Shown here piece after piece: positions 13,179 through 62,562 of a stretch of 64,000 nucleotides of DNA. Every line of letters begins with the position of its first letter. Position 1 is the stretch's first letter. Under the pieces are notes generated by a model. It was not told the DNA's origin, made no database searches, and saw nothing but the letters and a program-made list of their open reading frames with translations. The translations under genes were made by a program, and so were the position numbers. The DNA is from an uncultured bacterium (lineage in GTDB: Bacteria; Oederibacteriota; PGYV01; Palsa-1178), in NCBI GenBank assembly GCA_937889595.1, contig CALAOR010000076.1:69626-133625 (forward strand). The letters run 5' to 3'.

Positions 13179-14891
13179 ATGGAAAAAGATAATGTCGGCA
13201 ATAATAATGAGGGTAAAACAGGGTCCGCGTACGGTCTGATGTTTAAAGCCGTGATTTATATTTTTTTTGTTTTTATGATCTTCGTTTATATAAGAACTGC
13301 GGCGCCGGCTTTTTCGCTGAATGACTCACCTGAAACCGCGGCGGCCGCTGTAAGCCTGGGAATAGGGCACGCGCCTGCTTACCCGCTTTATATGCTTGCG
13401 GGCAAGGCGGCCCTGTTGTTTTTGCCCGGAAATCCAGCCTTTGCCTTATCTGTTTTTTCAACTGTCATGGCCGCTGCTGTCCTCGTGTTTGTTTTCGTTA
13501 TCGCAAAAAGATACAGCTCCCGCTTTGCCTTGTATGCGCCTGTTCTGCTCGCGTTTATTTCCACGTTTTGGGAACAGGCGTCTGACGCAAAAGGCGGCAT
13601 ATACATACTGAATCTTCTTCTGCTTTCCATGCAGCTGCTGGCCCTGGATACATTGATAAAAAAGTACGGTCAAAAATGTTTTCTCTTCATTATGTATACC
13701 TACGGTCTTTCCCTGGCAAACCACTGGCCAAGCGCGGCCATTATGGTTTTTATCCCGCTTGGCGCCATGGCCGCCGTCGCCGCGCGTAAAAAATACAGGC
13801 ATATGGCGGCAGGCGTTTTTTTTGTCCTGCTGGGATTGACGCCGTATATATATCTTCCAGTAAGGGCATTAGCCGGACCAGCTATGAATATGGAAAATCC
13901 TGCGGACATAGGTTCAATCCTCTCTGTGATTTTCAGGCGGGTTTATTCAAGTCCGCTGAATATTGATTTGAGTTCGGTTGTTTACCAGACAAAAGCCGTT
14001 TTTTTATTTTTTGCATCCTCACTTTCCGTTTTTGCCCTGATCCCGCTGGCTGCTTTGTTTAAAAAGTCTTCCGGCTCTCTCACGCTGCCGCCCATTCTGT
14101 TCATCACGGCGCTTGTGGATATAATTGCCATCGCAGTGTTTAACAGGACGTCTGCGATTTATGAGGACCTTATAGGCGTATTCCTGCTGCCTTCCTGTCT
14201 TACTTTATGCGCTCTTACCCCCGCCGGGATTGAAATGATCGCTGATAAAATTAAAGGCAGGCTGGCGGGCAGGCTTCTTATCGGCGCGCTCATTGTGATA
14301 GCACTGGCCATGGGTGCGGAAGCATATATTTCCTCTGACCGCGGTTCCGACTATCTTGGGTATGACATAGGTATGAATATTATAAAGACTGCGCCTTTGG
14401 GCGTAAATTTGATAGTCATAGGGGATTATAATGTATTTGCGGCGCAGTACCTGCAAATAGCCGCGGCAAAGAGGCCGGATTTGCGGATAAAACGCTGTGG
14501 AAACGCCGATTTTACCGGAAAAATAGGGCTGCCTGCTTACTCAACAATTTCGAATGAAAAAAACATTCAGGCATATGCGGGTGATTTTAAAGTCCGGCGT
14601 CAGGGCATACTTTTTGAGCTGTTAATGAAAACTTCACGGGAAATCGTCCCGGACGGGTATCAGTGGCTGATATATTCATACCGCGGCATGATCGGCGGGC
14701 TTTTGCCTAGGGACAGCATGGAGAATTTCCTGTTGTCATACTACTCATCCAGCATGCTGTTTCAGGCGGAAGAGTATGCCGGGGCGGGGATGACGGAAAA
14801 AGCAAAACGAATGCTGAACATGTCGCTGGCCATAAAGGGTTTTAAGTCTGCCGAGGCCATAAAAAGGTCGCGCGGTAAAATAGGGATTTAG
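13179..14891 (+). CDS. DUF2723 (TMEM260-like) polytopic membrane protein, putative glycosyl/mannosyl-transferase
   Basis: NDSPETAAAAVSLGIGHAPAYPLYMLAGK matches the DUF2723 DSGE...HPPGYPLY signature. The protein has many transmembrane helices. Confidence 0.65.
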   Translation: MEKDNVGNNNEGKTGSAYGLMFKAVIYIFFVFMIFVYIRTAAPAFSLNDSPETAAAAVSLGIGHAPAYPLYMLAGKAALLFLPGNPAFALSVFSTVMAAAVLVFVFVIAKRYSSRFALYAPVLLAFISTFWEQASDAKGGIYILNLLLLSMQLLALDTLIKKYGQKCFLFIMYTYGLSLANHWPSAAIMVFIPLGAMAAVAARKKYRHMAAGVFFVLLGLTPYIYLPVRALAGPAMNMENPADIGSILSVIFRRVYSSPLNIDLSSVVYQTKAVFLFFASSLSVFALIPLAALFKKSSGSLTLPPILFITALVDIIAIAVFNRTSAIYEDLIGVFLLPSCLTLCALTPAGIEMIADKIKGRLAGRLLIGALIVIALAMGAEAYISSDRGSDYLGYDIGMNIIKTAPLGVNLIVIGDYNVFAAQYLQIAAAKRPDLRIKRCGNADFTGKIGLPAYSTISNEKNIQAYAGDFKVRRQGILFELLMKTSREIVPDGYQWLIYSYRGMIGGLLPRDSMENFLLSYYSSSMLFQAEEYAGAGMTEKAKRMLNMSLAIKGFKSAEAIKRSRGKIGI

Positions 14892-14977
14892 AAATGCTTT
14901 CTGTATGCAGGCGGAAATATATGGGGCAAAAAAAAGCAAATGAATAGCGCAAGAGTGCCGGGAGAACCATTAAATTG

Positions 14978-15006
14978 TTGACATAAAAAAACCAATGGTA
15001 TAGAAT
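14978..15006 (+). promoter_or_regulatory. sigma70-like promoter: TTGACA, 17-nt spacer, TAGAAT
   Basis: Read directly from the sequence upstream of the 15067 and dedA genes. Confidence 0.5.
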
Positions 15007-15066
15007 TATTCAGGTTCTAACCGCTGCTTTCGCTTACCCGGGAGTAAAATATCAAAATTAAGGTGA

Positions 15067-15312
15067 ATGATGAAGAAAACAGGCAAAATTCCGGCAATTA
15101 TTATCCTGATCTCATTATTTGTCTGCTGTTTATGTTTTGATATTGACGGCTCCGGGTATGGAACCGAAGAACCATGGATGCTTCCGGTCAACCCTGCTGA
15201 TCTGATAAATATTAACGGCTCTTATTATATTTTGAAGCCGGTCCTTGCATTTATACCCGCTGTTATCTCATTTCCCCCGGAATATCCGCCGAAATCAGCC
15301 ATATTCATATAA
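15067..15312 (+). CDS. hypothetical small secreted or lipoprotein
   Basis: The ORF has a signal-like N-terminus. No homology was recognised. Confidence 0.35.
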   Translation: MMKKTGKIPAIIILISLFVCCLCFDIDGSGYGTEEPWMLPVNPADLININGSYYILKPVLAFIPAVISFPPEYPPKSAIFI

Positions 15313-18587: not shown

Positions 18588-18618
18588 CGACCCGGTCCGG
18601 CATTTGTGTTTACGATTT

Positions 18619-18792
18619 AAATGATACTGCCGGAAAACCCTTAATAACCATCGTTGTGGGCCGAATAATCCTGTCAACACACTTTGTGTGTTGCCGGACT
18701 TCGTATTTGGTCCCTACAAATATTTGCCTTTATTTGTAGGGGTAGCATATCATGCTGCCCGCCCCTTGCGGGTTTTTCGGACAGTCTCAATA
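18619..18792. repeat. TIR-bounded repeat element, copy A (~170 bp; TIR GATACTGYCNGAAARCCC)
   Basis: Left TIR 18623-18640 and right TIR 18770-18788. The internal sequence is the reverse complement of copy B at about 90% identity. It contains hairpins and the palindrome CAACACAC-ttt-GTGTGTTG. Confidence 0.8.
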
Positions 18793-18800
18793 TACGCACC

Positions 18801-19007
18801 TATATACAACCACTATTGTAACTAAACACAATAGTTATAAACAAAACGATTTTCGTAGAGAAGGGGCTCGTCCCCTTCTCAATCTGGGCTGGGCGGATAA
18901 CTGGGGCCAGCATTTTAGAGGGGGACAAGCCCCCTCTCTACGAGTTCTAAAAAACACATATAAACATATTTGTTCTATTTGTAAAATCACAATAGTGGTT
19001 GTATATA
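18801..19007. repeat. 207-bp palindromic element with perfect 19-bp TIRs (TATATACAACCACTATTGT) and two internal G-rich hairpins
   Basis: Arms at 18801-18819 and 18989-19007 are exact reverse complements. Internal hairpins are GAGAAGGGG-ctcgt-CCCCTTCTC and AGAGGGGG-acaag-CCCCCTCT. Confidence 0.75.
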
Positions 19008-19057
19008 ACAACATAAACCGCCATGTACCATTCGTAGTAGCTTAAGGTACATGGCAT

Positions 19058-19086
19058 GCTTTTCTGACAGTATCCAAATAAGGTCC
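19058..19086. repeat. solo third copy of the element right-end motif (gcttttctgacagtatccaaataaggtcc)
   Basis: Near-identical to 27513-27545 (ttttcagacagtatccaaatacaggtcc). Confidence 0.6.
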
Positions 19087-19131
19087 GTTCCCCAAACAAT
19101 AAAATAACCGTTATTTTTATTAAAAATCCGC

Positions 19132-19160
19132 TTGACAATTAAACATACAAATCGTATACT
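19132..19160 (+). promoter_or_regulatory. strong sigma70-like promoter: TTGACA, 17-nt spacer, TATACT
   Basis: Perfect -35, 17-nt spacer and 5/6 -10. It is positioned to drive the DUF3276 and GH2 genes. Confidence 0.6.
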
Positions 19161-19252
19161 TATTTTATGATAAAACATACACTTGGTCAAGGATAAAAAA
19201 ACGCGGTTAGGTCCGCGTGTATTCCCGGTAAAAAAAATTCGGAGGGGTTTTT

Positions 19253-19519
19253 ATGAGCGAACAGGAAGCTGTTTTTTCAAAAGTTGTAAGCGCGGGCAAG
19301 AAAAAGTACTACATGGACGTGAGAAAGGCGAAGACGGGTAATTTGTACCTCTCAATCAAGGAGGTAACACTCGGCGACACCCAGGACAAAAGCGAATCCC
19401 GCAGGATACTTGTTTTTGACAACGCGATAAAAGATTTTGGGGAGGGCATGGATGAGATAAGAAAGTACATGCCCGGAAAAGAAAGGGTAAGATCTGAAGC
19501 TGAAAAAGTGGCGTTTTAA
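19253..19519 (+). CDS. DUF3276 (PUR-alpha-like) nucleic-acid-binding protein
   Basis: KKYYMDVRKAKTGNLYLSIKEV matches DUF3276. A GGAGGGG ribosome-binding site precedes the start. Confidence 0.6.
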   Translation: MSEQEAVFSKVVSAGKKKYYMDVRKAKTGNLYLSIKEVTLGDTQDKSESRRILVFDNAIKDFGEGMDEIRKYMPGKERVRSEAEKVAF

Positions 19520-19545
19520 ACGTATTTTACGAAGTTTTCACATAA

Positions 19546-19578
19546 AAAAGCGGCAGCCCGGGAACTGCCGCTTTTTTC
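19546..19578 (+). terminator. rho-independent terminator
   Basis: aagcggcag-cccgggaa-ctgccgctt followed by TTTTTT. Confidence 0.75.
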
Positions 19579-19716
19579 ATTAATTGCTTGTAAAAGAAGG
19601 TTATTTATAGTATAAATTAGTCATCAAAGGGAAGCGGCCCGAATGAAGGTTCATGCAACGAACCTTTAATGGCCGCTATTTTTTTATGTCAATTTGATTG
19701 ATGACAAGGAGCGCGT

Positions 19717-21831
19717 ATGAAAAAACAAACCAGTCTTAACGGCAGGTGGGATTTCAGCCATGCAGGAAGCAAAACATCCATAAAGGTGCCTTCCAACTGG
19801 TATTTGCAGGGGCATGATATATCGGGCAACGCTGACTACAGCAGGGTCTTCACGTTAAAAAAACAATCAAATAAAAAGTATTTCATGGTATTTAAGGGGG
19901 TTGACTATTTCTGTGAAGTCATCCTGAACGGAAAATTCATAGGGCGGCACGAGGGGTATTTCCAGAAATTCAGGTTTGATGTGACCTCTGCCATAAAGAA
20001 CGGCAAAAACAGCATAAAAGTTTATGTTAATTCGCCCAAAGAAAGCGAAACTATATGGCCAAATGCCAAATACCTCATTAAAGGAATATTCAACCATCAT
20101 GACGCGCGTCCCGGGTCATGGAGCAAGAGCCGCGGCCAGGAAATGAACACGGGCGGCATATGGAACGACGTGTATGTGGAGTCTGTCGACACCGTGGAAA
20201 TAGAAAGGGTAAAGATAACGCCGCTCTTAAAAGACGACGGCGTGTGGAACGTGGGCGCGGAGCTTATTATTAATAATTACACGGAGAAGATAATAGAATC
20301 AAAATTGAGCGGCGTAATCGAGCCTTACAATTTCAAGGGCAAGGCAAAAAATATTGAAAGAAACACAACCCTTTATCCCGGAAAAAATACTGTCAGGCTC
20401 TATACCGACATGCAAAACCCCGCTTTATGGTGGACCTGGGATTTTGGCAAGCCAAATCTTTATGAATTTACATATACTGTGAAAACAGGCGCGGCAAAGG
20501 ACACGTATACGGACATAAGCGGTATCAGGGAATTCAAACGCGCGGAAGACAGGGCTTGGTATTTAAATGGCAAGAAACTCTTCATAAGGGGCACGAACAT
20601 GATCCCCACGCAGATGCTTTCTGAATACACCCGGGAAAAGGCAAGAAAAGACATAAGCATGCTGGTTGGCGCGAATCTTAATATGGTCAGGATACACGCG
20701 CATGTCAACCGCAAGGAACTGTATTACGAGGCAGACAGGGCCGGGATCATGGTATGGCAGGATTTTGCGCTGCAGTGGGGATATGAAACCACGGATACAT
20801 TCATGGAAAATGCCGTGTCACAGATAAAGGACATGATAAACCATCACTATAACAGGCCGTCAATTACCTTTTGGTGCTGCCATAACGAGCCGTTTGTCAG
20901 CGAAAAACAGCTGGATCCGGTCTTATACATCAAGGCAAGGGAGGAGGATCCGGCGCGTTATATAGAAAAAGCGTCTGATTTTACCCAGCACTATTATCCG
21001 GGATGGTATTATGAAAATTCCCCGGAGAATTTTTATCTGGATACGGTCAACGCCGAAAAGCGATTCATCATTTCCGAGTACGGAGCGGAAGCGCTTCCAT
21101 GCAGGGAAACCATGGAAAAGATGATGAAGCCGGCCGACCTGTGGCCGCCGAACTGGAAAGAGTGGGAATATCATGATTTCCAGCCGGAACAGACATTTAA
21201 TACGGCCAGGATTAAAATGGGGGAATCACTTGATGAATTCATAGAAAATTCCCAGCAGTACCAGGCTCACATAATCAAGGCGCATACGGAAACATACAGG
21301 CTTGCCAGGTATAAAATTTTAAACGGCATACTGCATTTTATGTTCTGCGAATGCTGGCCTTCGATCACCTGGGCGGTAGTTGACTATTACAGGATACCTA
21401 AAAAAGGCTATTACGCGCTTAAGACAGCCATGCAGCCCGTATATCCCGGTTACCGCCTTGTAAGAAGCACCAAGTCAAAAGGCGAGCGTTTAAGCTGGGG
21501 GATTTTATGGGATCCGTTCTTTATAATAAATGACCTGCCGCGGGATTTAAATAACCTCAAAGCGGAGATAACCCTCACAGACGCCGCGGGAGTAATATAT
21601 AAGAAAGAATCAAGGAAGATAGTTGAAATAAAAGCCGATTCAATAACATATCCTTTTTCGGGACAGCAGCTTGAGGCATTTGAAAAAGACCCGTTTGAGA
21701 TACCTGAATCAGCGGCAACAGGCTGGGGAAAGGTAGAGCTTAAACTCCATGATTCCAAAGGCAGGTTGATGGCGGAGAATGATTATAAACTCGAGATAAC
21801 GGAACGGTTAAGCAGGCCGTTTGGGGAGTAG
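19717..21831 (+). CDS. glycoside hydrolase family 2-like (beta-mannosidase / beta-galactosidase / exo-glucosaminidase clan)
   Basis: An N-terminal sugar-binding domain (FKGVDYFCEVILNGKFIGRHEGYFQKFRFDVT) and a TIM-barrel with NMVRIHAHVN and WCCHNEP acid/base motifs. Confidence 0.65.
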   Translation: MKKQTSLNGRWDFSHAGSKTSIKVPSNWYLQGHDISGNADYSRVFTLKKQSNKKYFMVFKGVDYFCEVILNGKFIGRHEGYFQKFRFDVTSAIKNGKNSIKVYVNSPKESETIWPNAKYLIKGIFNHHDARPGSWSKSRGQEMNTGGIWNDVYVESVDTVEIERVKITPLLKDDGVWNVGAELIINNYTEKIIESKLSGVIEPYNFKGKAKNIERNTTLYPGKNTVRLYTDMQNPALWWTWDFGKPNLYEFTYTVKTGAAKDTYTDISGIREFKRAEDRAWYLNGKKLFIRGTNMIPTQMLSEYTREKARKDISMLVGANLNMVRIHAHVNRKELYYEADRAGIMVWQDFALQWGYETTDTFMENAVSQIKDMINHHYNRPSITFWCCHNEPFVSEKQLDPVLYIKAREEDPARYIEKASDFTQHYYPGWYYENSPENFYLDTVNAEKRFIISEYGAEALPCRETMEKMMKPADLWPPNWKEWEYHDFQPEQTFNTARIKMGESLDEFIENSQQYQAHIIKAHTETYRLARYKILNGILHFMFCECWPSITWAVVDYYRIPKKGYYALKTAMQPVYPGYRLVRSTKSKGERLSWGILWDPFFIINDLPRDLNNLKAEITLTDAAGVIYKKESRKIVEIKADSITYPFSGQQLEAFEKDPFEIPESAATGWGKVELKLHDSKGRLMAENDYKLEITERLSRPFGE

Positions 21832-21833
21832 CA

Positions 21834-21889
21834 GAAGTTCGGAATTCGGAATTCGGAATTCGGAGTTCGGAATTCGGAATTCGGAGTTG
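21834..21889. repeat. heptanucleotide tandem array (GGARTTC) of 8 units, self-complementary via GAATTC
   Basis: Begins 3 nt after the GH2 stop codon. Read directly from the sequence. Confidence 0.85.
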
Positions 21890-21930
21890 ACGGCCTAAAT
21901 AAGCAATAGAAATAATTATCGGAGGGCAAC

Positions 21931-23163
21931 ATGAAACCAAGTGCAACACCTGTGCCTGAAGAGACAAAGCGCGCGTTTCAGCTGATTATATTTTTCGGCT
22001 TTATCAGCCTTTTTGGCGATATTGTTTATGAAGGCGCAAGGGCGGTAAACGGTCCATATTTAAAGACGCTTGCCGTTAACGCGGCTATGGTCGGGTTAAT
22101 CGCCGGGTTTGGCGAATTTGCGGGTTATGCTTTGAGGCTTTTATCAGGTTACTATGCGGACAAAACAAAGGCATATTGGGTGTTTACCTTTGTCGGTTAC
22201 GGATTAATTATTGCCATACCTCTTTTATCCCTGACCGGCATATGGCAGATGGCCGCGGTTTTTATGGTTTTAGAAAGGATTGGCAAGGGCATCAGGGCGC
22301 CTGCCAAAGACTCCATAGTTTCAAGCGCGGCGAAACGGGTGGGGACCGGAAAGGGCTTTGCCATACAGGAAGTCATGGACCAGTTCGGGGCCCTGCTCGG
22401 GCCTTTAATATTTGCTGGTTACTTTGCGGTTACAGGCTCAGGCGTGAAAACATCTGTTGATTACAGGCATGCTTACGGGTTGTTCTGGATACCGTTTTTG
22501 CTCGTAATGATCTTCGCGGTTATTGCATATGTCAAAGTTCCCGACCCTTCCAAACTTGAACCGCCCCCAAAGGCCACCGACCCCGACAAAATAACGAAAT
22601 TATTCTGGATATATACGGTATTTTCTTTCACGACGGTTTTTGGTTTCATGAATTTTGCCGTTATAGGTTATCATTTTAAGGCCCAGAATGTCATAAGCGA
22701 CGTCTGGATACCCATTTATTACGCGATAGCCATGGGTGTTGACGGCGTTGCGGCATATGTCATGGGGACATGGTATGACAGGCTGAAGATAAAACTCAAC
22801 CATCACGGCGGCGGTCTTGCCGCGCTTATAGTGCTGCCCATACTCTCCGCATTTATACCGTTCTTTGCTTTTACAAAAAGTCCTGTCCTGGCTTTAGTAT
22901 CAGCCGTGCTTTGGGGCATAGTCATGGGCGGCCATGAAACCATAATGAAAGCGGCCATTGCGGATATAACGCCCCTGAAAAAGAGGGGGACAGGCTACGG
23001 CATATTTAACTTTTCTTACGGATTAGCCATGCTGGCCGGAGCGTACTTAACCGGACTGCTGTATGACATATCAATACCTGTTTTATGCTGGTCGGCAGTG
23101 GCTGTGCAGGCCATAGCTATTACGGTTTTTTTCATACTTAAGAAAGAAATACAGACAACATAA
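21931..23163 (+). CDS. MFS transporter (12 TM)
   Basis: Hydropathy profile and an MFS fold signature (GKGIRAPAKDS loop). Confidence 0.7.
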   Translation: MKPSATPVPEETKRAFQLIIFFGFISLFGDIVYEGARAVNGPYLKTLAVNAAMVGLIAGFGEFAGYALRLLSGYYADKTKAYWVFTFVGYGLIIAIPLLSLTGIWQMAAVFMVLERIGKGIRAPAKDSIVSSAAKRVGTGKGFAIQEVMDQFGALLGPLIFAGYFAVTGSGVKTSVDYRHAYGLFWIPFLLVMIFAVIAYVKVPDPSKLEPPPKATDPDKITKLFWIYTVFSFTTVFGFMNFAVIGYHFKAQNVISDVWIPIYYAIAMGVDGVAAYVMGTWYDRLKIKLNHHGGGLAALIVLPILSAFIPFFAFTKSPVLALVSAVLWGIVMGGHETIMKAAIADITPLKKRGTGYGIFNFSYGLAMLAGAYLTGLLYDISIPVLCWSAVAVQAIAITVFFILKKEIQTT

Positions 23164-23166
23164 GCC

Positions 23167-24432
23167 ATGACAACCCTACAAATGCAAAAAGCCATGAGGT
23201 CCGTGCTTGATGGAAGTACGTATGTCCTTGTCGGGAAGATCGGAGTTTTTGCTGACAAACAGGGTATTAAAGCCTGTATTGTCGGAGGCATGGTAAGGGA
23301 TATATTCCTGAAAAGAAAGACTGTTGATATAGATGTGGTTGTCCTGGGGGACGGAATGAAATTTGCGCGGCTTTTGGCTGACGAACTTCACGGCGCGTAT
23401 AAGGGATTTGAAAAGTTCAAAACCGCGAAAATATTCCTCAAAAACGGCCGTATAGACATATCCAGCGCCAGGTCGGAAACCTATGAAAAACCTGCGGCGC
23501 TTCCAAATGTTGTTTTAAGCGGGATTAACGAAGATTTATTCCGCAGGGATTTCACGATAAATTCCATGGCAGTATCAATCAATAGGGAGGATTTTGGCGA
23601 ACTTTTTGACCCGTTTGGCGGCGTGTCCGACCTGAAAAAGAAAATCCTGAAAACAATGCATGATAAGAGCTTTATTGACGACCCGACAAGGATACTAAGG
23701 GCGGTGAGGTTTGAAACAAGGCTTGGTTTTAAGATGGAAAAAAGAACGCTTAAGCTTATCCATGAAACTTTAAAACGCAATATATTTGACAATTTGTCCG
23801 GGGAGAGGATAAGGGAAGAATTGTTCATTATGTTTGGCGAGCCGTCTCCTTTAAAGGCAATGCTGCGGCTGGACAGCCTCGGCGTTCTAAAGAAACTCAG
23901 CCACGGCATCCGCATCGACGCGACGGCAATTCGTATGTTTAAAAATATCAGCGCGTCGCGCAGTATGATAGCCGGCTATGGGGCGGACGCAGCCTTGATA
24001 AACCTGATGGCGCTTCTTGGCGGCATAACATCGGGGGCGGCCGGCACCGTGGCGGCAAAGCTTAAGCTTAGTAATGAACAAAATACGGCAATAAAGCAGG
24101 CAAAAGAACTTCGGATGTTATCGGAGAAAGGCCTGGCTAAAACAGGCAAAAGCAGGAGCGATACATATTTTTTGTTTAAGGATCACGCAACAGAAGCGCT
24201 GTTATATCTGATGCTGATGCAGAAAGACAGGAAACAAGCGGCAAGGATCAGGCATTTTCTTGACAAATTGAAACACGTTAAGATTGAAATCAGCGGCAAA
24301 GATCTTAAAGAAATGGGAATTAAGGAAGGCCCGGAATATACGAGGATACTGTCAGCTGTGATGAAGGCAAAGCTGGACGGGAAGGCCAATACGAGGGAAG
24401 AACAGTTGAAATTGGTTAAAAGTTATTTTTGA
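23167..24432 (+). CDS. cca: tRNA nucleotidyltransferase / poly(A) polymerase family protein (CCA-adding enzyme-like)
   Basis: The head domain contains GGMVRDIFLKRKTVDIDVVV. Confidence 0.75.
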   Translation: MTTLQMQKAMRSVLDGSTYVLVGKIGVFADKQGIKACIVGGMVRDIFLKRKTVDIDVVVLGDGMKFARLLADELHGAYKGFEKFKTAKIFLKNGRIDISSARSETYEKPAALPNVVLSGINEDLFRRDFTINSMAVSINREDFGELFDPFGGVSDLKKKILKTMHDKSFIDDPTRILRAVRFETRLGFKMEKRTLKLIHETLKRNIFDNLSGERIREELFIMFGEPSPLKAMLRLDSLGVLKKLSHGIRIDATAIRMFKNISASRSMIAGYGADAALINLMALLGGITSGAAGTVAAKLKLSNEQNTAIKQAKELRMLSEKGLAKTGKSRSDTYFLFKDHATEALLYLMLMQKDRKQAARIRHFLDKLKHVKIEISGKDLKEMGIKEGPEYTRILSAVMKAKLDGKANTREEQLKLVKSYF

Positions 24433-24700
24433 TTTTGTAGAGAGGCTGCTTGCTGCCTCTCTGACGCAGGCCTTAAAATCGCAGGATCCGTTGTAAATGC
24501 CTGTGATGAGCGGCAGCAAGCAGCCGCTCTATAGCGTCGTTTTTTTGATTTTGTAAAGGGGATTGTTCCTAGCCCCTAAGGGGCAACAAACAGACACCAA
24601 AAGGTGTCGTTTTTTTGATTTTGTGTATGGTATTGCTCCTATCAAATGAAGGCCATACAAACCCAATAAATGATGGGTTATTATTTAAAAGGAGGGCATT
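24431..24700 (+). repeat. three tandem modules, each TTTTTTTGATTTTGT followed by a strong hairpin; module 2 ends in a canonical terminator (24593-24616)
   Basis: The GATTTTGT motif occurs at 24431, 24547 and 24617. Hairpins are at 24439-24462 and 24508-24529, and their loops are mutually complementary. Confidence 0.7.
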
Positions 24701-24705
24701 AAACA

Positions 24706-25199
24706 TGGATTTATTCGAAGCCATACACGGACGCCGCAGCGTCAGGAAGTACAAAAAAGAACCCATATCAAAAGAGACCCTTGAAAAAATCGCGGAAGCC
24801 GGCAAATGGGCCGCGAGCGCGCGTGCTGAATATCCGTGGAGGTTTGTTGTAATAACGGAACCAGAACGCCTGAAATCACTTGCTGCAATAGCGGGAACCC
24901 ACGGAAAATTCCTGGCGGATGCGGGCGCGGCAATTGTAGTGGCCTCTAAGGACGCTAAATATTATATAGAAGACGGGGCCGCGGCAACGCAGAATATGCT
25001 TCTGGCCGCTTATGCGCTGGGGGTAGGAACCTGCTGGGTTGCCGGGGATAAAAAAGATTATTGCCCGCAGGTGCTGGAATTTGTCAGGGCGCCGGCAGGA
25101 TACAGGCTTGTGAGCATAATATCATGCGGAATTCCCGGTGAAAAACCGGTTAAAATCAAGCCTGAAAACAGGGATGTTATAATTTGGGACACTTTTTAA
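24706..25199 (+). CDS. nitroreductase family protein
   Basis: RRSVRKY...ISKE...NAQPWRF-like motifs. The ATG follows AAAAGGAGGG; the ORF track gives a longer ORF starting at 24615. Confidence 0.8.
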
Positions 25200-25306
25200 A
25201 TCATTCGGGGCAAACAAGACCATGTAAAACAGCATTGATTTTGTTGACAATTAACACCGCGTGGAGTATATTGTAAGCATTCAATGAAAAAATACAAGGA
25301 GTTAAA

Positions 25307-26230
25307 ATGAAACAAATAACGCTGTTTTCAACCGCAGCCATGCTTATTTTGCTGCTTATTTCTTCGGGTTGTTCCAAAACAAAAAACCCGATCGAACCTG
25401 CGGCTGCCGTCATAACTGGGGTGACCGGAAAGATAGCTTTTGCAAGTTACCGCGACGGCAACTGGGAAGTTTATGTGATGAATGCCGACGGCAGCGGCCA
25501 GACAGACCTGACAAATAACCCGGCAAAGGAGGGTGGGGTTAGCTCATGGTCTCCGGATGGGAAAAAGCTGGTGTTTTCAAGCAACCGCGACAATAACGAT
25601 GAAATATATGTGATGAACTCTGACGGGAGCGGCCAGACAAACCTGACAAATAATTCCAATTCCGATGTGATTCCCGCATGGTCGCCGATTGGCGGGAAAA
25701 TAGCATTTGAAAGCCAGCGTGACGGAAATGGTTATTATGAGATATACTCAATGAATGAAGATGGGACCGATCCGACAAGACTGACTAATAATATCGCGAC
25801 AGATGAAAATCCTGCGTGGTCGCCAAACGGGAATACAATTGCTTTTGACAGCGACCGTGACGTTGCCGGTATTGAACAGATATACGTAATGAATGGCGAC
25901 GGAACCAGCCCGGTAAGGCTGACCAATGATTCTTCAAGGGATCAGTACCCCGTATGGTCACCGGATGGAACTAAAATAGCTTTCATGAGCGCCCGCACCG
26001 GGAATTTTGAGATATATGTGATGAATTCGGATGGAAGCGGCCAGACAAACCTGACAAACAGCAGCGCTATGGACGGCTTTCCAACATGGTCCCCCGACGG
26101 GCTAAAGCTGGCTTACGCAAGCAACCGCGACGGGAACATGGAAATATATATGATGAATGCGGATGGCAGCAACCAGGTAAGGCTGACATACAACACTGAG
26201 GATGATACATATCCATCGTGGCATAAGTAA
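25307..26230 (+). CDS. TolB-like beta-propeller lipoprotein (7 PD40/WD40-like repeats)
   Basis: Lipobox LISSGC. Repeats read (Y/V)MN(A/S)DGSGQTNLTNN...WSPDG; the DNA carries matching internal repeats. Confidence 0.75.
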   Translation: MKQITLFSTAAMLILLLISSGCSKTKNPIEPAAAVITGVTGKIAFASYRDGNWEVYVMNADGSGQTDLTNNPAKEGGVSSWSPDGKKLVFSSNRDNNDEIYVMNSDGSGQTNLTNNSNSDVIPAWSPIGGKIAFESQRDGNGYYEIYSMNEDGTDPTRLTNNIATDENPAWSPNGNTIAFDSDRDVAGIEQIYVMNGDGTSPVRLTNDSSRDQYPVWSPDGTKIAFMSARTGNFEIYVMNSDGSGQTNLTNSSAMDGFPTWSPDGLKLAYASNRDGNMEIYMMNADGSNQVRLTYNTEDDTYPSWHK

Positions 26231-26373
26231 GAAAGATAAAACAGCCATTCATTATTGGATTATATAACGCTTGACAAAAAAGCCTAATTATTATATTCTT
26301 TTATATCCTTTTGCCTGTAAAGGGCAATAGGAATTTTGTTTTTTCAATAGTTCACAGGAGGATTTTGAGAATT

Positions 26374-26820
26374 ATGAAGACATTTATGGCAAGACCGCAG
26401 GATCAGGTCAGGAAATGGTATATTGTTGACGCAACCAACGAAGTGCTTGGAAGGCTCTCGACAAGGATAGCCGATACATTAAGAGGAAAAAAGAAAGTTA
26501 CTTTTACGCCGCATGTTGATACGGGTGATTTTGTCATCGTCATTAACGCCGAAAAAGTAAGGCTTACCGGCAAGAAAACCGATAAAAAAGTATACCAGTC
26601 GCACAGTCTGTATCCGGGAGGATTCAAGGAAGTGGAATACATGCACCTTCTTAACACTCATCCGGAAAAAATCATCAAAGCAGCCGTGCGCGGAATGCTT
26701 CCGAAAACAAAACTCGGGGATCAGGTATTCAAAAAACTCAGGGTATATAAAGGCGCGACACACCCGCATACATCCGTGGTACTTGAACCATTAAAGGCAA
26801 TTTTCCAAGGAGGAAAGTAA
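26374..26820 (+). CDS. rplM: 50S ribosomal protein L13
   Basis: [30 protein letters not shown] matches E. coli L13. An AGGAGG ribosome-binding site precedes the start. Confidence 0.95.
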
Positions 26821-26821
26821 A

Positions 26822-27208
26822 TTGAGCACAAGTTACGGTACAGGCAGGAGAAAAAACGCCATAGCTAAAGTATGGGTAAAAACAGGGACCGGCACAATAA
26901 CAGTGAACAATAAGGATGTTAAGGAATATTTCCCGAGAGGCACGCACGTGGATCACCTGGTAGCGCCTCTTGAAGCCGTGGGCGTTATAGGCAAGTATGA
27001 CGTGAAAGTGACAACCATGGGAGGCGGAAAGACAGGACAGGCGGGCGCCATCAGGATGGGAATCTCCCGTGCTCTTGGCAAACTCGACGAAGTTATGAAA
27101 GCAACCCTGGCAAAGGGCGGATTCATGACAAGGGACGACAGAATGGTCGAAAGAAAGAAATACGGAAGGGCAAAAGCAAGAAGAAGCTTCCAGTTCTCAA
27201 AAAGATAA
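26822..27208 (+). CDS. rpsI: 30S ribosomal protein S9
   Basis: The C-terminus ...KYGRAKARRSFQFSKR is the S9 signature. The start is a TTG after GGAGGAAAG. Confidence 0.95.
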   Translation: MSTSYGTGRRKNAIAKVWVKTGTGTITVNNKDVKEYFPRGTHVDHLVAPLEAVGVIGKYDVKVTTMGGGKTGQAGAIRMGISRALGKLDEVMKATLAKGGFMTRDDRMVERKKYGRAKARRSFQFSKR

Positions 27209-27228
27209 TTTACAACAAAGACATATAC

Positions 27229-27262
27229 GCAAAGGCCGGGTTATCCCGGCCTTTGTTGTTTA
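27229..27262 (+). terminator. rho-independent terminator of the rplM-rpsI operon
   Basis: aaaggccggg-ttat-cccggccttt followed by a T-rich run. Confidence 0.8.
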
Positions 27263-27360
27263 AAGCAAAATATACAGAGCGTGGAAAGTTTGGGAGCAGA
27301 AGGCCGGGAATTAATAACAACAAGAGTGCGCTCGGGGCGTCAGCTGCCTGAATAAACCCC

Positions 27361-27536
27361 AAATGATACTGTCGGAAAGCCCGCAAGAGGCGGGCAGCAT
27401 GATATGCTGCCCCTACAAGTGCAGGCAGATATTTGTAGGGGCCGAATACGAAGTCCGGCAACACACAAAGTGTGTTGACAGGATTATTCGGCCCACAACG
27501 ATGGTTTTTATGGGTTTTCAGACAGTATCCAAATAC
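27361..27536. repeat. TIR-bounded repeat element, copy B (internal segment inverted relative to copy A)
   Basis: Left end aaatgatactgtcggaaagccc and right end gggttttcagacagtatcc. A 65-bp stretch is 100% identical to the reverse complement of copy A. Internal hairpins are GGGCAGCAT-gat-ATGCTGCCC and GGCCGAATA...TATTCGGCC. Confidence 0.8.
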
Positions 27537-27562
27537 AGGTCCAAAATGGATCGGAGACACAA

Positions 27563-30500
27563 GTGGCTAAACGGAAAAAACAGGTTCTTCCTTACCTTAA
27601 TACATCCCTTTCTTTCGAGGAACGGGTCAATGACCTTGTCTCCAGGATGACCCTGGAGGAAAAAACATCCCAGATGCTTCACTCGTCACCCGGAATAAAA
27701 CGCCTGGGTATACCAAAATATGACTGGTGGAACGAGTGCCTGCACGGTGTTGCCCGCGCGGGCATAGCTACCGTATTCCCGCAGGCTATAGGGCTTGCCG
27801 CCACTTTTAATGATGAACTTATAAATAAAGCGGCATGCGCAATATCAGACGAAGGCCGCGCAAAATACCATAAAGCCATAAATGAAGGTTTCAGGGAAAG
27901 ATATTTCGGGATAAATTTCTGGTCCCCGAACATTAATATATTCCGCGATCCACGCTGGGGCAGGGGCCAGGAAACTTACGGCGAGGACCCGTATCTTACG
28001 TCCCGCATGGGAGCCGCGTTCGTAAAAGGGATACAGGGTGATGACCCAAAATATATGAAAGCCGCGGCATGCGCCAAGCACTTTGCCGTGCACAGCGGGC
28101 CCGAAAATTTGAGGCATACGTTTGACGCGGTCGTGTCTGAAAAAGACCTGCGCGAGACTTACTTGCCCGCTTTTAAAGCCCTCGTAAGGCAGGCAAAAGT
28201 GGAATCTGTAATGGGCGCTTATAACAGGACCTTAGGGGAGCCTTGCTGCGCGAGCAAGAGACTTTTGACCGACATACTGCGCAATGAATGGGGTTTTTCC
28301 GGGCACGTGGTTTCCGACTGTCACGCTATTCACGATATATATTTAAACCACAAATATACAAAAACATCGGCTGAGGCTGCGGCATTATCGGTTAAAAACG
28401 GGTGCGATTTAAACTGCTGCGCAGGCGGGGACCAATGCGCGGAATCGGGCAAGGGGCTTCAAAAGGCCCTTGAATACGGGATACTCGGGCAGTCTTATAT
28501 AGACAGGTCGATCAAACGGCTATTATTGACGCGCTTTAAGCTCGGCATGTTCGACCCTGACAAGGATGTAAAGTATTCAAAAACACCTTACAGCGTGGTT
28601 GATTCGTTAAAACACAGGCAGCTCGCGCTTGAAACAGCCAGGCAGTCGCTGGTGCTTTTAAAGAACGACGGCATCCTGCCATTGAAAAAAATAAGATCAA
28701 TCGGCGTTACGGGTCCGAATGCCGACGACATAGAAGCCCTGCTCGGAAATTATAACGGGTCCCCGTCAAAATGGGTCACCCCGCTTGAGGGTATAAGGAA
28801 AATAGCCGGCAAAAAGGTGAAAGTAACTTATTTGAAGGGATGCAATATAAAGGATAAATACACGGACCATCTGAATGCATTAAAGGAAACTTTCAAAGAT
28901 GTTGATGTTATCACGGCGTTCCTCGGATTAAATCCGCTGATAGAAGGCGAAGAAGGCGCAGGGGACGGGGACAGGACCGACATATCGCTGCTGCCGGCGC
29001 AGGCTAAAGTGCTTGAAGTATTATGTTCAATCGGCAAGCCGGTCATTGTGGTGCTGTTAAACGGCGGCGCCATATCTTTAGATGCAAGCCAAAAGAATAT
29101 AAAAGCGGTGATTGAAGCATGGTATCCCGGCGAAGAAGGCGGGACAGCCATTGCCGAGGTCCTTTTCGGCAAATACAACCCGGCAGGCCGGCTGCCTGTT
29201 ACTTTTTACCGGTCCATTCAGGACCTTCCTGATTTCCGTGACTACAGGATGGAGAACAGGACGTACAAATATTTCAAGGGCGAACCGCTTTTTCCTTTCG
29301 GGTTTGGCCTGTCGTACACGAAGTTCAAATACTCTAAATTAAAACTTCAGAAAACCCTGGCGCCGGGAGAACCGTTAAAACTATCCGTGGAAGTCAAAAA
29401 TACGGGTTCAATGGACGGGGATGAGGTAGTGCAGGTCTATATAAAAGCTCCGGCAGCGGCTGAAGGCGCGCCTTTAAGATCATTGTGCGGGATGAAGCGG
29501 GTGAACCTCAAAAAGAAAACAAAAAAGAAACTGGAGTTCATCATCCATCCGGAACAGATAGGCGCGTACGCCGCAGACGGTTCATTCAGACAAATATCAG
29601 GCGTATACCGGATATTTGCCGGAGGCGTGCAGCCCGGCTATGAAAAAATGGCAGTTACAACAGGGATTGTAAAAGCAAGCGTAACCCTTGTTAATGCAAA
29701 GGACACAGCCGGGAAAACGGCAGCCGCGAAATATGAAGGGTTTAAAGTCGGCGGAAGGCACATATATGATCCAAACAACGAAAAATTCATAATTCGCGGG
29801 GTAAATAAGATGATAGTGTGGCTTGATCCGGACGGCATCCCGTCATTTTCGGAAATAGCGAAAACCGGAGCCAACTGCGTGCGCATAGTTTGGAGCGTCA
29901 AAGACGGCACTATGGAAGGGCTCGATACGGCCATACAAAACTGCATTAAGGAAAAGTTGGTGCCCGTAATAGAGTTGCACGACCACACGGGCAGCTGGGG
30001 CGACACGGTATTTGAAATGTCCAACAATTATTGGACCGACCCTAAAATGACGGGGATAATCAAAAAATATGAAAGATACCTGATAGTAAATTACGGCAAT
30101 GAATTGGGGGATAACACCGTAACAAATGAGCAGTTCAGGCTGCGATACAGCGATGCCGTGAATAAGATGAGAAAAGCGGGCATAAGGGTACCTATAATGA
30201 TAGACGCCGCAGCCTGGGGCACGGGAATGAATTACATAACGGATAACTGGGAATATTTGCGGAAACACGACCCGATGAATAACCTCATTTTCAGCATACA
30301 CATGTGGTGGAACGACGGCGATTCAAGGCGTGTTAAAGACGCCATAGAGAACGCCAAAACAGCGGGAATACCTCTTGTAGTCGGGGAGTTTGCGGTGGCA
30401 GGCATGGAAAACAAGGGCCTGATATGTTATGAAACCATAATATCCGAATGCCATAAAACAGAAATTGGCTGGCTTGCATGGGAATGGGGCCCGGGAAATC

Positions 30501-44780: not shown

Positions 44781-44891
44781 TTCATAAGTAAAATTATATT
44801 ATTATACGATACAGCGGTAGGGGCGGACCTGTGTGTCCGCCCGCTGCGGGCTTTATGACTACTGCGAATGGTACATGGCCTTAATGATAGG

Positions 44892-44995
44892 TCGTGTCCG
44901 GCGCGGATGAAATTTTTCTATGGATTGTGCGCTTGTATTATAAGGGTTTTAGTGGCGCACAGGCCATAGAAAAATTTCATCCGCGCCGGACACGA
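44892..44995. repeat. 104-bp palindromic element: perfect 32-bp inverted repeat around a 40-nt loop containing GTATTATAAG
   Basis: 44892-44923 is the exact reverse complement of 44964-44995. A nested GTGCGC/GCGCAC stem lies in the loop. Confidence 0.85.
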
Positions 44996-45126
44996 TAAAG
45001 AATTTCATGGTTTTATAGGGTTTTCCGACAGTAAGATATAGGCTGTGAAAAAAAATTGGCGGTCCAAGCACCGTTCTTACGAAGTCGCGCAAGCTGGTTT
45101 GAAAACACTGGAAAAGAGGTTTTATT

Positions 45127-56712: not shown

Positions 56713-57503
56713 TGGGTTCAATAAATATTCACAGTAGAGCGGCTGCTCGCTGCCGCTCACCAAAGGCTCTATTATTCGCGGCGGTCTTTGTTATTTTGTC
56801 CGTGTTCTCAAACGGCGCCGTATTTGATCTAAAAAGTGTTTCATCAGGTTTATTCGCGCCTGACATGACAGCCGCAAAGCAGGGAATATTATCAGCCAGG
56901 ATAAACGGGGAACCTGTAAAGATAGAGTCATATACAACGGGAAAAAGCGCCGATGAGATCATGCGGTATTATGCCGATGACGCGCAGAAACACGGTTATG
57001 AACTTATAAATGGAAAAGAATTGGCGCGTCTGGGCGCCTTCCTGATAAACATGGGCATGGCTGAAAGCCCGGACAACTGGTACTACCTGTGTTACAAACT
57101 GCCCGGCGGAGATATGTCCATAATAACGGCCGGTGAGTTCGGCCGTAATACTAGAATTGTAACCGCAAAAGCAGGCAAAACAAACGGGGTCCATAGTAAG
57201 CCGGGCTTTGATGACCGTATAAGGCATTATCCCGGCCTTGAAAAAGTCCTGAGCATTGAAATTTTATCGGGGAATAACGTTATTGGTTTCGCTAATTTTT
57301 ACAAAAATGAGGGCGCGGACATGTATTCCATGAAAGCATATTACGAGGATTATCTGCCGAAAAACAAGTGGACAATACAAAGGCAGTATACGGCCGCGGA
57401 TACGGACATGTTCCTGATAGAAAAGAAAGGCAGGGGATATATGCTGAATATTTATCCATCGGACAATAATGAAAAATGGGTAATGGTGATGGGACAGCGA
57501 TAG
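56711..57503 (+). CDS. hypothetical secreted protein in the tad cluster
   Basis: Signal peptide. No homology was recognised. Confidence 0.45.
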
Positions 57504-61340: not shown

Positions 61341-62468
61341 ATGACGATCAAAGCGCCATTTGAACTCGAAAAGCTGTCAAACGACGAATACATACTGAAC
61401 ATGGGGCCGCAGCATCCGTCCACGCACGGGGTTTTGCGCATCATTTTAAAACTTGACGGCGAAGTGGTAAAAGACCTTTACGCCGACGTCGGATACATAC
61501 ACTCAAGCGTTGAGAAGATGTGCGAGAACAAAAAATATGAAATGATCATGCCGTATACGGACAGGCTGGATTATTTGTCCGCCGTCAATTATAACTGGGC
61601 ATATGCACTGGCCGTTGAAAAGCTCATGGGTATTACCATACCGGAACGCGCTGAATACATCCGCGTCATGCTGGCCGAATTAAACAGGATCATGAGCCAT
61701 CTGCTCTGGTACTCGGCTTACGGCATGGATGTCGGCGCTTTGACCCCCATTATGTACGCTTTCCGCGAGAGGGAAGAGGTAATAGATATGATAGAGGGCA
61801 TGACAGGCGGAAGGCTGACGCATAACGCTTTCAGGTTCGGCGGGTTTAAGAACGACCTTCAAAAGGGTTTTATGGATTCTCTTAAGAAATTTATCGGGCA
61901 CTTTAATGACAAAATAGACGAATATGAAGCCTTACTAATTAACAATGTAATCCTGACAGCCAGGACAAAAGGCGTGGGAATTTTAAGCAAAGAAACGGCC
62001 ATGAGCTACGGCGTCACGGGCCCGTCGCTCAGGGGGTCTGACTGCGCAATTGACCTGAGAAAAACAGCCCCTTACTCCATATATGACAAGTTTGACTTCA
62101 AAGTATGCACGGGCAAGAACGGCGACACATGGGACCGGTTAAAGGTCAGGATGGACGAGATGAGGGAAAGCACAAAGATATTAAAGCAGGCCATGGAAGG
62201 CATACCCGCGGGCGACATCATGGCAAAAGTGCCCAAGATAATCAAACCCGCGCCCGGCGAAGTTTACACAAAAGTGGAAAGCGCCAGGGGGGAGTTCGGG
62301 GTATATATAATAAGCGACGGAACCGACAAGCCGTACAGGATAAAGTTCAGGAGCCCGTCGTTCTCGAATTTGAGCGTGCTTAAGGAAATAGCAATAGGCT
62401 CGAAGATCGCTGACGTGGTAGCGATCATGGGAAGCCTGGACCTGGTAATACCGGAGATAGACAGGTAG
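61341..62468 (+). CDS. nuoD: NADH-quinone oxidoreductase subunit D (49 kDa)
   Basis: NMGPQHPSTHGVLR motif. An alternative upstream start at 61281 would add a lysine-rich 20-aa extension. Confidence 0.9.
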   Translation: MTIKAPFELEKLSNDEYILNMGPQHPSTHGVLRIILKLDGEVVKDLYADVGYIHSSVEKMCENKKYEMIMPYTDRLDYLSAVNYNWAYALAVEKLMGITIPERAEYIRVMLAELNRIMSHLLWYSAYGMDVGALTPIMYAFREREEVIDMIEGMTGGRLTHNAFRFGGFKNDLQKGFMDSLKKFIGHFNDKIDEYEALLINNVILTARTKGVGILSKETAMSYGVTGPSLRGSDCAIDLRKTAPYSIYDKFDFKVCTGKNGDTWDRLKVRMDEMRESTKILKQAMEGIPAGDIMAKVPKIIKPAPGEVYTKVESARGEFGVYIISDGTDKPYRIKFRSPSFSNLSVLKEIAIGSKIADVVAIMGSLDLVIPEIDR

Positions 62469-62483
62469 TTAGACCGCATAATT

Positions 62484-62562
62484 TGGAGTTCGGGATTCGG
62501 AGTTCGGAGTTCGGAATTATTAATACAGAACAGAGAACAGAGAACACAGAACACAGAACACA
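62484..62562. repeat. two adjacent heptamer arrays: (GGARTTC) x5 then (SAGAACA) x6
   Basis: Begins ~15 nt after the nuoD stop and ends ~20 nt before the nuoH start. Confidence 0.85.

Follow-up and report, generated by a model that had tools for sequence, protein, structure and literature searches.

The MITEs described in bacteria include the ERIC/IRU elements of enterobacteria, the Correia/NEMIS elements of Neisseria and the RUP elements of Streptococcus pneumoniae. Two repeats, copies A and B, were found in a 64,000-nucleotide stretch of DNA (the window) from an uncultured Gram-negative bacterium; among named lineages, Candidatus Goldbacteria MAGs are its nearest relatives. Like ERIC, Correia and RUP, they belong to the ~100–170 bp, non-coding, intergenic elements that carry terminal inverted repeats (TIRs) and a target-site duplication (TSD) and occur in either orientation. 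The likeness extends to a strong fold when transcribed and to a frequent location in gene leaders or 3' ends. In contrast, there is no sequence similarity between A/B and these elements, and A and B come from an uncultured lineage close to the candidate phylum Goldbacteria. The TSD of Correia and RUP is TA, while that of A/B is 5 bp and A/T-rich.

The Tn3-derived TIMEs are also non-autonomous and share with A and B the possession of TIRs and a 5-bp A/T-rich TSD. The ends of the Tn3 family are ~38 bp long and start with GGGG; a Tn3-derived TIME was ruled out by ends of ~18 nt that start with GATACTG. REPINs are short intergenic hairpin-forming repeats, as are A and B, and their arms stay complementary between copies, as do those of a sister family described below (family 2). 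They are mobilized by RAYT (Y1) transposases, produce no TSD and go with a RAYT gene. The 5-bp TSD, the distinct terminal repeats and the absence of Y1_Tnp from the window ruled out a REPIN/RAYT system. Invertible promoters (invertons), known from gut Bacteroidales and other bacteria, likewise consist of short inverted repeats around a 100–200 bp segment upstream of a gene. Unlike invertons, A and B have no promoter or nearby invertase in the window, are dispersed with TSDs, and show one orientation per locus in the assemblies. We conclude that A and B are very probably MITEs of a previously undescribed family (family 1), which are non-coding, ~165 bp long with 18-bp TIRs, and landed in opposite directions.

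Structure and target sites of copies A and B

The elements and their associated features are as follows.
18623–18788, minus strand: copy A, family-1 MITE (166 bp; reverse complement of copy B over the full length, ~91% identity)
27365–27529, plus strand: copy B, family-1 MITE (165 bp; TIRs GATACTGTCGGAAAGCCC and GGGTTTTCAGACAGTATC)
27392–27412, 27410–27441 and 27439–27494, plus strand: three internal hairpins within copy B
27360–27364: left TSD of copy B, CAAAT (perfect 5-bp direct repeat)
27530–27534: right TSD of copy B, CAAAT (perfect 5-bp direct repeat)

Copies A and B are mutually inverted over 157–167 nt with 90–92% identity (BLAST E ~1e-54). The preliminary description had placed the inversion in the ~130-bp interiors only. 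The inversion is real, but the entire element is flipped, subterminal sequence included; because the TIRs mirror each other, a flip of the whole element appears as identical ends around an inverted interior. Their longest stretch of full identity measures 62 nt (27445–27506) rather than the 65 bp given previously. Ends of 18 nt matching GATACTGYCNGAAARCCC occur six times in the window against 0.1 expected, and the two 18-nt TIRs of copy B are 89% complementary to each other. The TIR consensus, GATACTGTCGGAAAACCC, is common to ~26 ends over the loci examined. It extends over ~18 nt, up to ~30 nt on one side, with GATACTG as the first bases. Both copies contain only spurious ORFs, whose frames have no relation to those of the genes on either side. 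The TTGACA hexamer is indeed on the plus strand in B (27476–27481) and on the minus strand in A.

The plus strand of copy B has a computed folding energy of −86.6 kcal/mol (z = −10), and the opposite strand is also computed to fold strongly (z = −7.6). Rfam searches of both loci at gathering and permissive thresholds yielded no family and only noise. The stem differences between the copies, taken previously for compensatory changes, are transitions on one side of the stem only, and in copy A every one of them is C-to-T on the plus strand. Such one-sided transitions rule out compensatory evolution in family 1.

The AAAT extension at the left side of both copies, which had been read as weakly favoring an inverton, is part of the 5-bp TSD CAAAT present on both sides of copy B. 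A 94% identical family-1 copy on another contig (L011:1820–1985) has CAAAC on either side, again as a perfect 5-bp direct repeat, and family-2 copies with perfect 5-bp flanks were observed in L006 (TATAT), L007 (ATATT) and L010 (TATAT). When both families are pooled, five of the eight complete elements have a perfect 5-bp TSD and two more match at 4 of 5 bases. The chance of at least five perfect TSDs among eight is ~9e-13, and 2e-9 if an AT-rich background is assumed. Copy A alone has no clean TSD (TAAAT / AATAT, 3 of 5 bases), while the flanks of the 452-bp nest of repeats around it match at 4 of 5 bases (TAAAT / CAAAT). Since TSDs together with copies in unrelated contexts are a signature of transposition, the opposite orientations of A and B are explained without flipping.

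Other copies, the sister family and the putative mobilizing enzyme

Two further family-1 copies, 94–95% identical, are present in L011, an unrelated metagenome contig, where they flank a gene that is likewise unrelated and again face opposite ways. Four family-1 copies were thus seen, two in ~82 kb of the source organism and two in L011; an ~18 kb extension of the source contig contained no more. Family 2 is represented by seven copies, which have the same 18-bp ends as family 1, and 5-bp TSDs occur in this family too. The same ends were also found on deletion derivatives 86 and 110 bp long. One family-2 copy is in the window.
44862–45035, minus strand: truncated family-2 copy (same terminal repeat at 45018–45035; 41-bp central hairpin at 44892–44995)

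The 38-bp stem of family 2 retains 35–38 Watson-Crick pairs out of 38 in six of the seven copies. The stem sequences are just 66–72% identical between copies, and the mismatches are symmetric between the strands. Small size without coding capacity, TIRs, a TSD of fixed length, dispersed copies and presence or absence between species, which are features of a MITE, were observed. A MITE inserted in both orientations was one of the two readings in the preliminary description, and it is supported by the TSDs, the copies in unrelated contexts, the sister family, and the shorter, element-free intergenic regions at syntenic loci.

Insertion would proceed by a cut-and-paste or copy-in pathway, through a transposase supplied in trans that cuts A/T-rich target sites with a 5-bp stagger. 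A DDE-type enzyme is the putative mobilizer. As stated in the preliminary description, the window encodes no recombinase or transposase; none was detected by Pfam scans of its ORFs or among the Pfam labels of L001 (9253–29519). A parent insertion sequence was sought as pairs of ends 0.7–4 kb apart at all loci examined, and none of the pairs encloses a transposase ORF. A weak Y1_Tnp ORF is present in L021, in a lineage with a different repeat. Viral contigs scanned with the shared 26-nt end and the paired-end pattern gave no match, nor did BLAST searches of plasmid and phage collections with copy B. An invariant interior 20-mer gave two chance matches in a genome collection (a Spirochaetales MAG and Spirosoma) with no further similarity, so that the source species is apparently absent from the GTDB representatives. 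Exact searches with the RpsI protein and with protein P0001 matched no record. The literature search returned nothing relevant on the end 12-mers and, among the results listed, no paper linking Goldbacteria with MITEs.

The two insertion sites

The features of the intergenic region between the P-type ATPase and DUF3276 genes (locus A) and of the GH3-GH5 leader (locus B) are listed below.
18623–19074: repeat nest of 452 bp, from the left end of copy A to the solo end
18618–18622 and 19075–19079: TAAAT and CAAAT, the flanks adjoining the nest
18801–19007: palindromic repeat X, with ends TATATACAACCACTATTGT (an unrelated repeat nested inside the block)
19009–19074, plus strand: module M, consisting of a hairpin (19020–19055) and a terminal repeat (19057–19074, the solo end)
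19132–19160, plus strand: conserved promoter of the DUF3276 gene (TTGACA-17-TATACT), 3' of the whole inserted block
27230–27255, plus strand: rpsI terminator hairpin (kept in 4 of 4 species)
27553–27556, plus strand: ribosome-binding site (RBS) of the GH3-GH5 gene, GGAG, 3' of the right TSD
27563, plus strand: GTG start of the GH3-GH5 gene, with copy B 33 nt upstream

At locus A, the ATPase stop codon precedes copy A by 35 nt, and the DUF3276 gene follows it after 464 nt. The solo end noted earlier beside copy A is present as the terminal repeat of module M, which was also found in L011, in L009 and at 44859–44879 of the window. Two ENA contigs end within repeat X. The GH2 gene starts ~930 nt downstream of copy A. 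The preliminary description had each copy directly upstream of a glycoside hydrolase gene; this is correct for B (GH3-GH5), but the DUF3276 gene comes first after A. A link to glycoside hydrolase regulation holds, by position, for copy B only. The repeat nest, located upstream of the intact DUF3276 promoter, probably has no effect or serves as a 3' structure.

At locus B, the placement of copy B between the rpsI terminator and the GH3-GH5 start was confirmed. The conserved terminator shows GH3-GH5 to be transcribed as a unit of its own, with copy B in its leader. A promoter scan of 27150–27650 detected no sigma-70-like site, and in the orthologous GH3-GH5 leaders such scans revealed no canonical promoter within the leader. 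Where the native promoter lies is consequently inferred from the GTATATAAT block, which is conserved in three relatives and diverged in the window. Since copy B sits between this presumed promoter region and the RBS, it is probably co-transcribed as a leader structure predicted to be very stable (−87 kcal/mol). By analogy with ERIC and Correia elements, this structure could alter mRNA stability or translation. In the sister lineages L020 and L021, a different palindromic repeat occupies the same position in the GH3-GH5 leader.

Comparison with a related species (L022, 77% identity in GH3-GH5) indicated that neither insertion is present at the syntenic locus. The intergenic region between rpsI and GH3 is 168 nt long in L022 against 354 nt in the window, and that between the ATPase and DUF3276 genes is 211 nt against 665 nt (454–455 bp shorter). 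The differences approximate the inserted lengths at both loci. This comparison is one of length and content without a base-precise empty site, because the species are too diverged to align across the insertions. The related-species loci L020–L023 contained no convincing ends of this type. Gene order and orientation between the positions of the two copies are the same in L021 and L022, which lack the element, as in the window.

Alternative explanations and implications

In an inverton, the 18-bp repeats would be crossover sites of a recombinase, and the ~130-bp promoter-bearing interior would flip to switch the hydrolase genes ON or OFF. The short segment with TTGACA between inverted repeats, the GH3-GH5 start codon 33 nt from copy B and the existence of both orientations, though at different loci, are compatible with such a switch. 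However, the hexamer lacks a properly spaced −10 and no sigma-70-like site accompanies it, while copy A has just 9-of-12 promoter matches, in about the number that shuffled sequence gives. Copy A is remote from the next gene, which keeps its own conserved promoter. Pfam scans of the window revealed no serine or tyrosine recombinase, and orientation agrees among assemblies (B in the window, L001 and L002; A in the window and L001), which is weak evidence in itself. The 5-bp direct repeats immediately outside both ends and the copies in unrelated contexts also argue against a switch, and we regard it as very improbable. The earlier lean towards an inverton, slight as it was, has thus lost any specific support, given the missing promoter in B, the missing recombinase, the constant orientation and the identity of AAAT as part of the TSD. 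The 165-bp inverted repeats also bound 18789–27364, and could in principle be the arms of an invertible or recombining 8.6-kb segment, or represent a static duplicated regulatory region. Both are extremely improbable: gene order and orientation match those of the element-free relatives, all genes are on the plus strand, and copies elsewhere have their own TSDs. The large invertible segment was rejected on the unchanged synteny with relatives.

Another explanation accepts copy B as a former MITE and proposes that selection has kept it as an RNA in the GH3-GH5 5'-leader, where it would act as a stabilizer, an RNase site or a modulator of translation. The strong plus-strand fold, the location between the rpsI terminator and the RBS, the divergence in the window of the GTATATAAT block conserved in three relatives, and the different palindrome that L020 and L021 carry at this point of the leader are consistent with this proposal. 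Inverted-repeat elements, however, inherently fold strongly, and here the other strand does so too. Selection on one strand left no sign, and the few stem substitutions, C-to-T on the plus strand, fit a mutational bias. We consider such recruitment quite unlikely. A broader idea, that elements with these ends need DNA hairpins to propagate, or alternatively that B was recruited as the GH3-GH5 leader or promoter, is also unlikely, if slightly less so. The dependence on hairpins is suggested by the stems of family 2, and could mean that fold-back copying remakes the palindrome whenever the element transposes, or that gene conversion homogenizes its arms; either way, the maintenance of a MITE would join TIRs and a TSD with REPIN-like hairpin conservation.

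Under the MITE interpretation, a TIR element inserted in two orientations mimics an inverton when just two loci are compared, and is a tempting false positive. The 5-bp flanking duplication provides a quick discriminator between the two. The effect of the insertions on neighboring genes would be passive. Repeats of this kind cause breaks in metagenome assemblies and may disturb the expression of adjacent carbohydrate-active enzyme genes. Families 1 and 2 would represent a modular MITE superfamily, not described before and apparently active in recent times, in an uncultured lineage that degrades polysaccharides.

Structure of the two copies

The repeat finder paired 18623-18779 with 27373-27529 as an inverted match of 157 nt with 91% complementarity, and BLAST stretched the match between the two elements, copies A and B, to 167 nt (90.4%, E ~1e-54 to 1e-61). 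In alignments, the reverse complement of A is similar to B without a break from end to end, whereas A in the forward orientation matches B at the termini alone; the entire element is therefore inverted, subterminal sequence included. The preliminary description of common termini around an inverted interior was right in its essentials but not in the extent of the inversion, and this appearance arises because the two ends are mutual inverted repeats. The longest identical run is 62 nt (27445-27506) rather than 65 bp. A motif search located the 18-nt end motif six times in the window (0.1 expected), and the solo end described previously is among these sites.

End motifs in the window
18623-18788, minus strand: copy A (family 1), one motif at each end
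27365-27529, plus strand: copy B (family 1), one motif at each end
19057-19074: solo end
45018-45035: end motif

On the plus strand, copy B forms three hairpins enclosed by a terminal-repeat stem (-86.6 kcal/mol, z = -10.3), and the opposite strand likewise folds well (z = -7.6). The mean column identity of the four family-1 copies is 94%. Compensatory stem changes had been proposed, but each stem difference in family 1 affects one side only, and the three in A are C-to-T changes on the plus strand, a pattern that fits mutational bias rather than compensation.

Dispersal, flanking duplications and a sister family

A metagenome scan for the two ends alone, spaced as in a MITE, returned 14 loci, six of which contain eight elements that are clear relatives. 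Two are additional family-1 copies in locus L011 (contig OCZT010000006.1), 94-95% identical to B and also in mutually opposite orientations, flanking an unrelated minus-strand gene. A sister family (family 2), with the same ends and a different interior, comprises six further elements and a truncated one in the window. Derivatives of 86 and 110 bp with internal deletions were also found. DNA similarity between the metagenome contigs bearing relatives and the window is confined to the repeats.

Family-2 copies
Window 44862-45035, minus strand, truncated
L006:5120-5292
L007:10177-10351
L010:5383-5555
L011:6921-7095
L009:671-845
L016:4174-4348

Perfect 5-bp direct repeats lie just outside the ends of B (CAAAT/CAAAT), L011:1820-1985 (CAAAC) and the elements in L006 (TATAT), L007 (ATATT) and L010 (TATAT), and flanks match at four of five positions at L011:6921 and L009:671. 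With background frequencies taken from the same loci, five perfect duplications among eight correspond to P ~9e-13 against 0.17%, or 2e-9 against 0.8% for AT-rich 5-mers. These repeats are target-site duplications. Further copies and flanking duplications, which the preliminary description had proposed to look for, thus both exist, and the AAAT extension it had read as a hint of an inverton belongs to the duplication CAAAT.

In all but one of the seven copies, the central stem of family 2 (38 bp) retains 35-38 Watson-Crick pairs, with only 66-72% stem identity between copies and 20 of 38 pairs altered on both sides. None of 500 shuffles attained the observed values, and slid controls pair at 35-44%. 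Mismatches are balanced (7 G·T versus 5 A·C), so the constraint bears equally on the two strands, at the level of DNA. Such arm conservation resembles that described for REPINs, from which family-2 elements differ in having terminal repeats and a duplication.

Insertion loci A and B

The same organism is represented in three other assemblies (L001-L003, 99.9-100% identity), and orientation is identical in every one that spans a given locus. Related species retain synteny and orthologues of the GH3-GH5 fusion protein (84, 82 and 77% identity), and no convincing end motif was found in their loci L020-L023 (~59 kb). In the 77% relative (L022, GCA_964536475.1), the rpsI-GH3 spacer is 168 nt versus 354 nt in the window, and the ATPase-DUF3276 spacer 211 nt versus 665 nt. 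The latter difference, 454 nt, approximates block 18623-19074 (452 bp) with or without a 5-bp duplication, and removing the block leaves 213 nt. The spacers have diverged too far between species for an empty site to be placed to the base, and absence of the insertions is therefore argued from spacer length and content.

The repeats at locus A form a nest. Copy A by itself has mismatched flanks (TAAAT/AATAT), and the flanks become TAAAT/CAAAT when the left end of A is combined with the solo end (to 19074). An unrelated palindromic repeat, X (18801-19007), separates copy A from the solo end, and the nest also holds a hairpin module, M (GCCATGTACC...GGTACATGGC). M occurs at 19009-19074 and 44859-44879 in the window, L011:7169-7218 and L009:856-912, beside terminal repeats, so the repeat superfamily is modular, or mosaic. 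X measures 207 bp with ends TATATACAACCACTATTGT; independent ENA contigs L002 and L003 break within it (at 18866 and 18900), a sign that X probably has several copies in the genome. The near-consensus DUF3276 promoter (19132-19160, TTGACA-17-TATACT), conserved in L021 and L022, lies 3' of the whole nest, and the GH2 gene starts ~930 nt downstream of copy A, with a LUD-domain gene between DUF3276 and GH2 in relatives. Copy A is therefore not directly upstream of a glycoside hydrolase, as had been stated, and the association is coincidental.

At locus B, all four species keep the terminator hairpin of rpsI (27230-27255). Copy B lies 3' of it, 23 nt from the ribosome-binding site GGAG (27553-27556) and 33 nt from the GTG start, and is thus inserted within the GH3-GH5 leader. 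A GTATATAAT block ~50 nt past the terminator, common to three relatives and diverged in the window, may be the native GH3-GH5 promoter; the promoter scan of the relatives gave no call there. Locus L021 carries a weak Y1_Tnp ORF (14662-15192).

Other features of the window include a GC-rich hairpin repeat (GAGCGGCAGCAAGCAGCCGCTC) in intergenic regions (24438-24531, 56718-56767), a 63-nt tandem duplication (24509-24641) and heptamer arrays GGAATTC/GGAGTTC directly 3' of the GH2 (21824-21899) and nuoD (62468-62543) stops. A PD40/WD40-like beta-propeller gene (25307-26230) with internal DNA repeats of ~135 nt is the source of direct-repeat families D1 and D2 in the local scan, which the whole-window scan numbers D1 and D3. 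Essentially every real gene over the 64 kb and ~18 kb past both ends is on the plus strand, an unusually strong bias given that the genome is Gram-negative and carries LPS genes.

Identity of the element and its host

We define copies A and B as a MITE mobilised in trans on the grounds of small size, terminal inverted repeats, a duplication fixed at 5 bp, copies dispersed in either orientation, derivatives with deletions, nested insertion and the lack of copies at orthologous sites, which bears out one of the two readings first offered. The other was a recombinase-flipped promoter switch; the TTGACA hexamer noted in copy B has no -10 element at suitable spacing, and a consensus scan of 27150-27650 found no sigma-70-like promoter. 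In agreement with the preliminary description, no transposase or recombinase was found in the window (Pfam on 39 ORFs and precomputed labels for 9253-29519); the genes seen by Pfam are all housekeeping (LPS assembly, Nuo, Tad pilus, ribosomal proteins). The inverton reading lacks each of its testable hallmarks and is unnecessary; a promoter switch is not supported and is very unlikely.

In none of the loci retrieved does a transposase ORF lie between two ends spaced as in an insertion sequence. Rfam, plasmid and phage BLAST and viral-contig scans gave no match, and the end sequence turned up nothing relevant in the literature. A duplication of 5 bp would be consistent with several transposase families (IS1380, IS701, ISH3, the IS2 group of IS3, some IS21 members and Tn3); the ends here are unlike Tn3-type ends.

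Among named relatives, NuoD is closest to Candidatus Goldbacteria/Goldiibacteriota MAGs (68-75% identity), and this one marker would place the host in that lineage, which is known for cellulose degradation (PMC7031533). The feature is real and of an ordinary kind, a new MITE family. The GH3-GH5 leader seems to tolerate or attract insertions, since at the position of copy B the 84% and 82% relatives bear another palindromic repeat (GTCATTGCGAGGAGC...GCTCCTCGCAATGAC; L020:3850-4090 and L021:9740-9960). The effect of copy B is most likely passive: it would lend this leader a highly stable structure.
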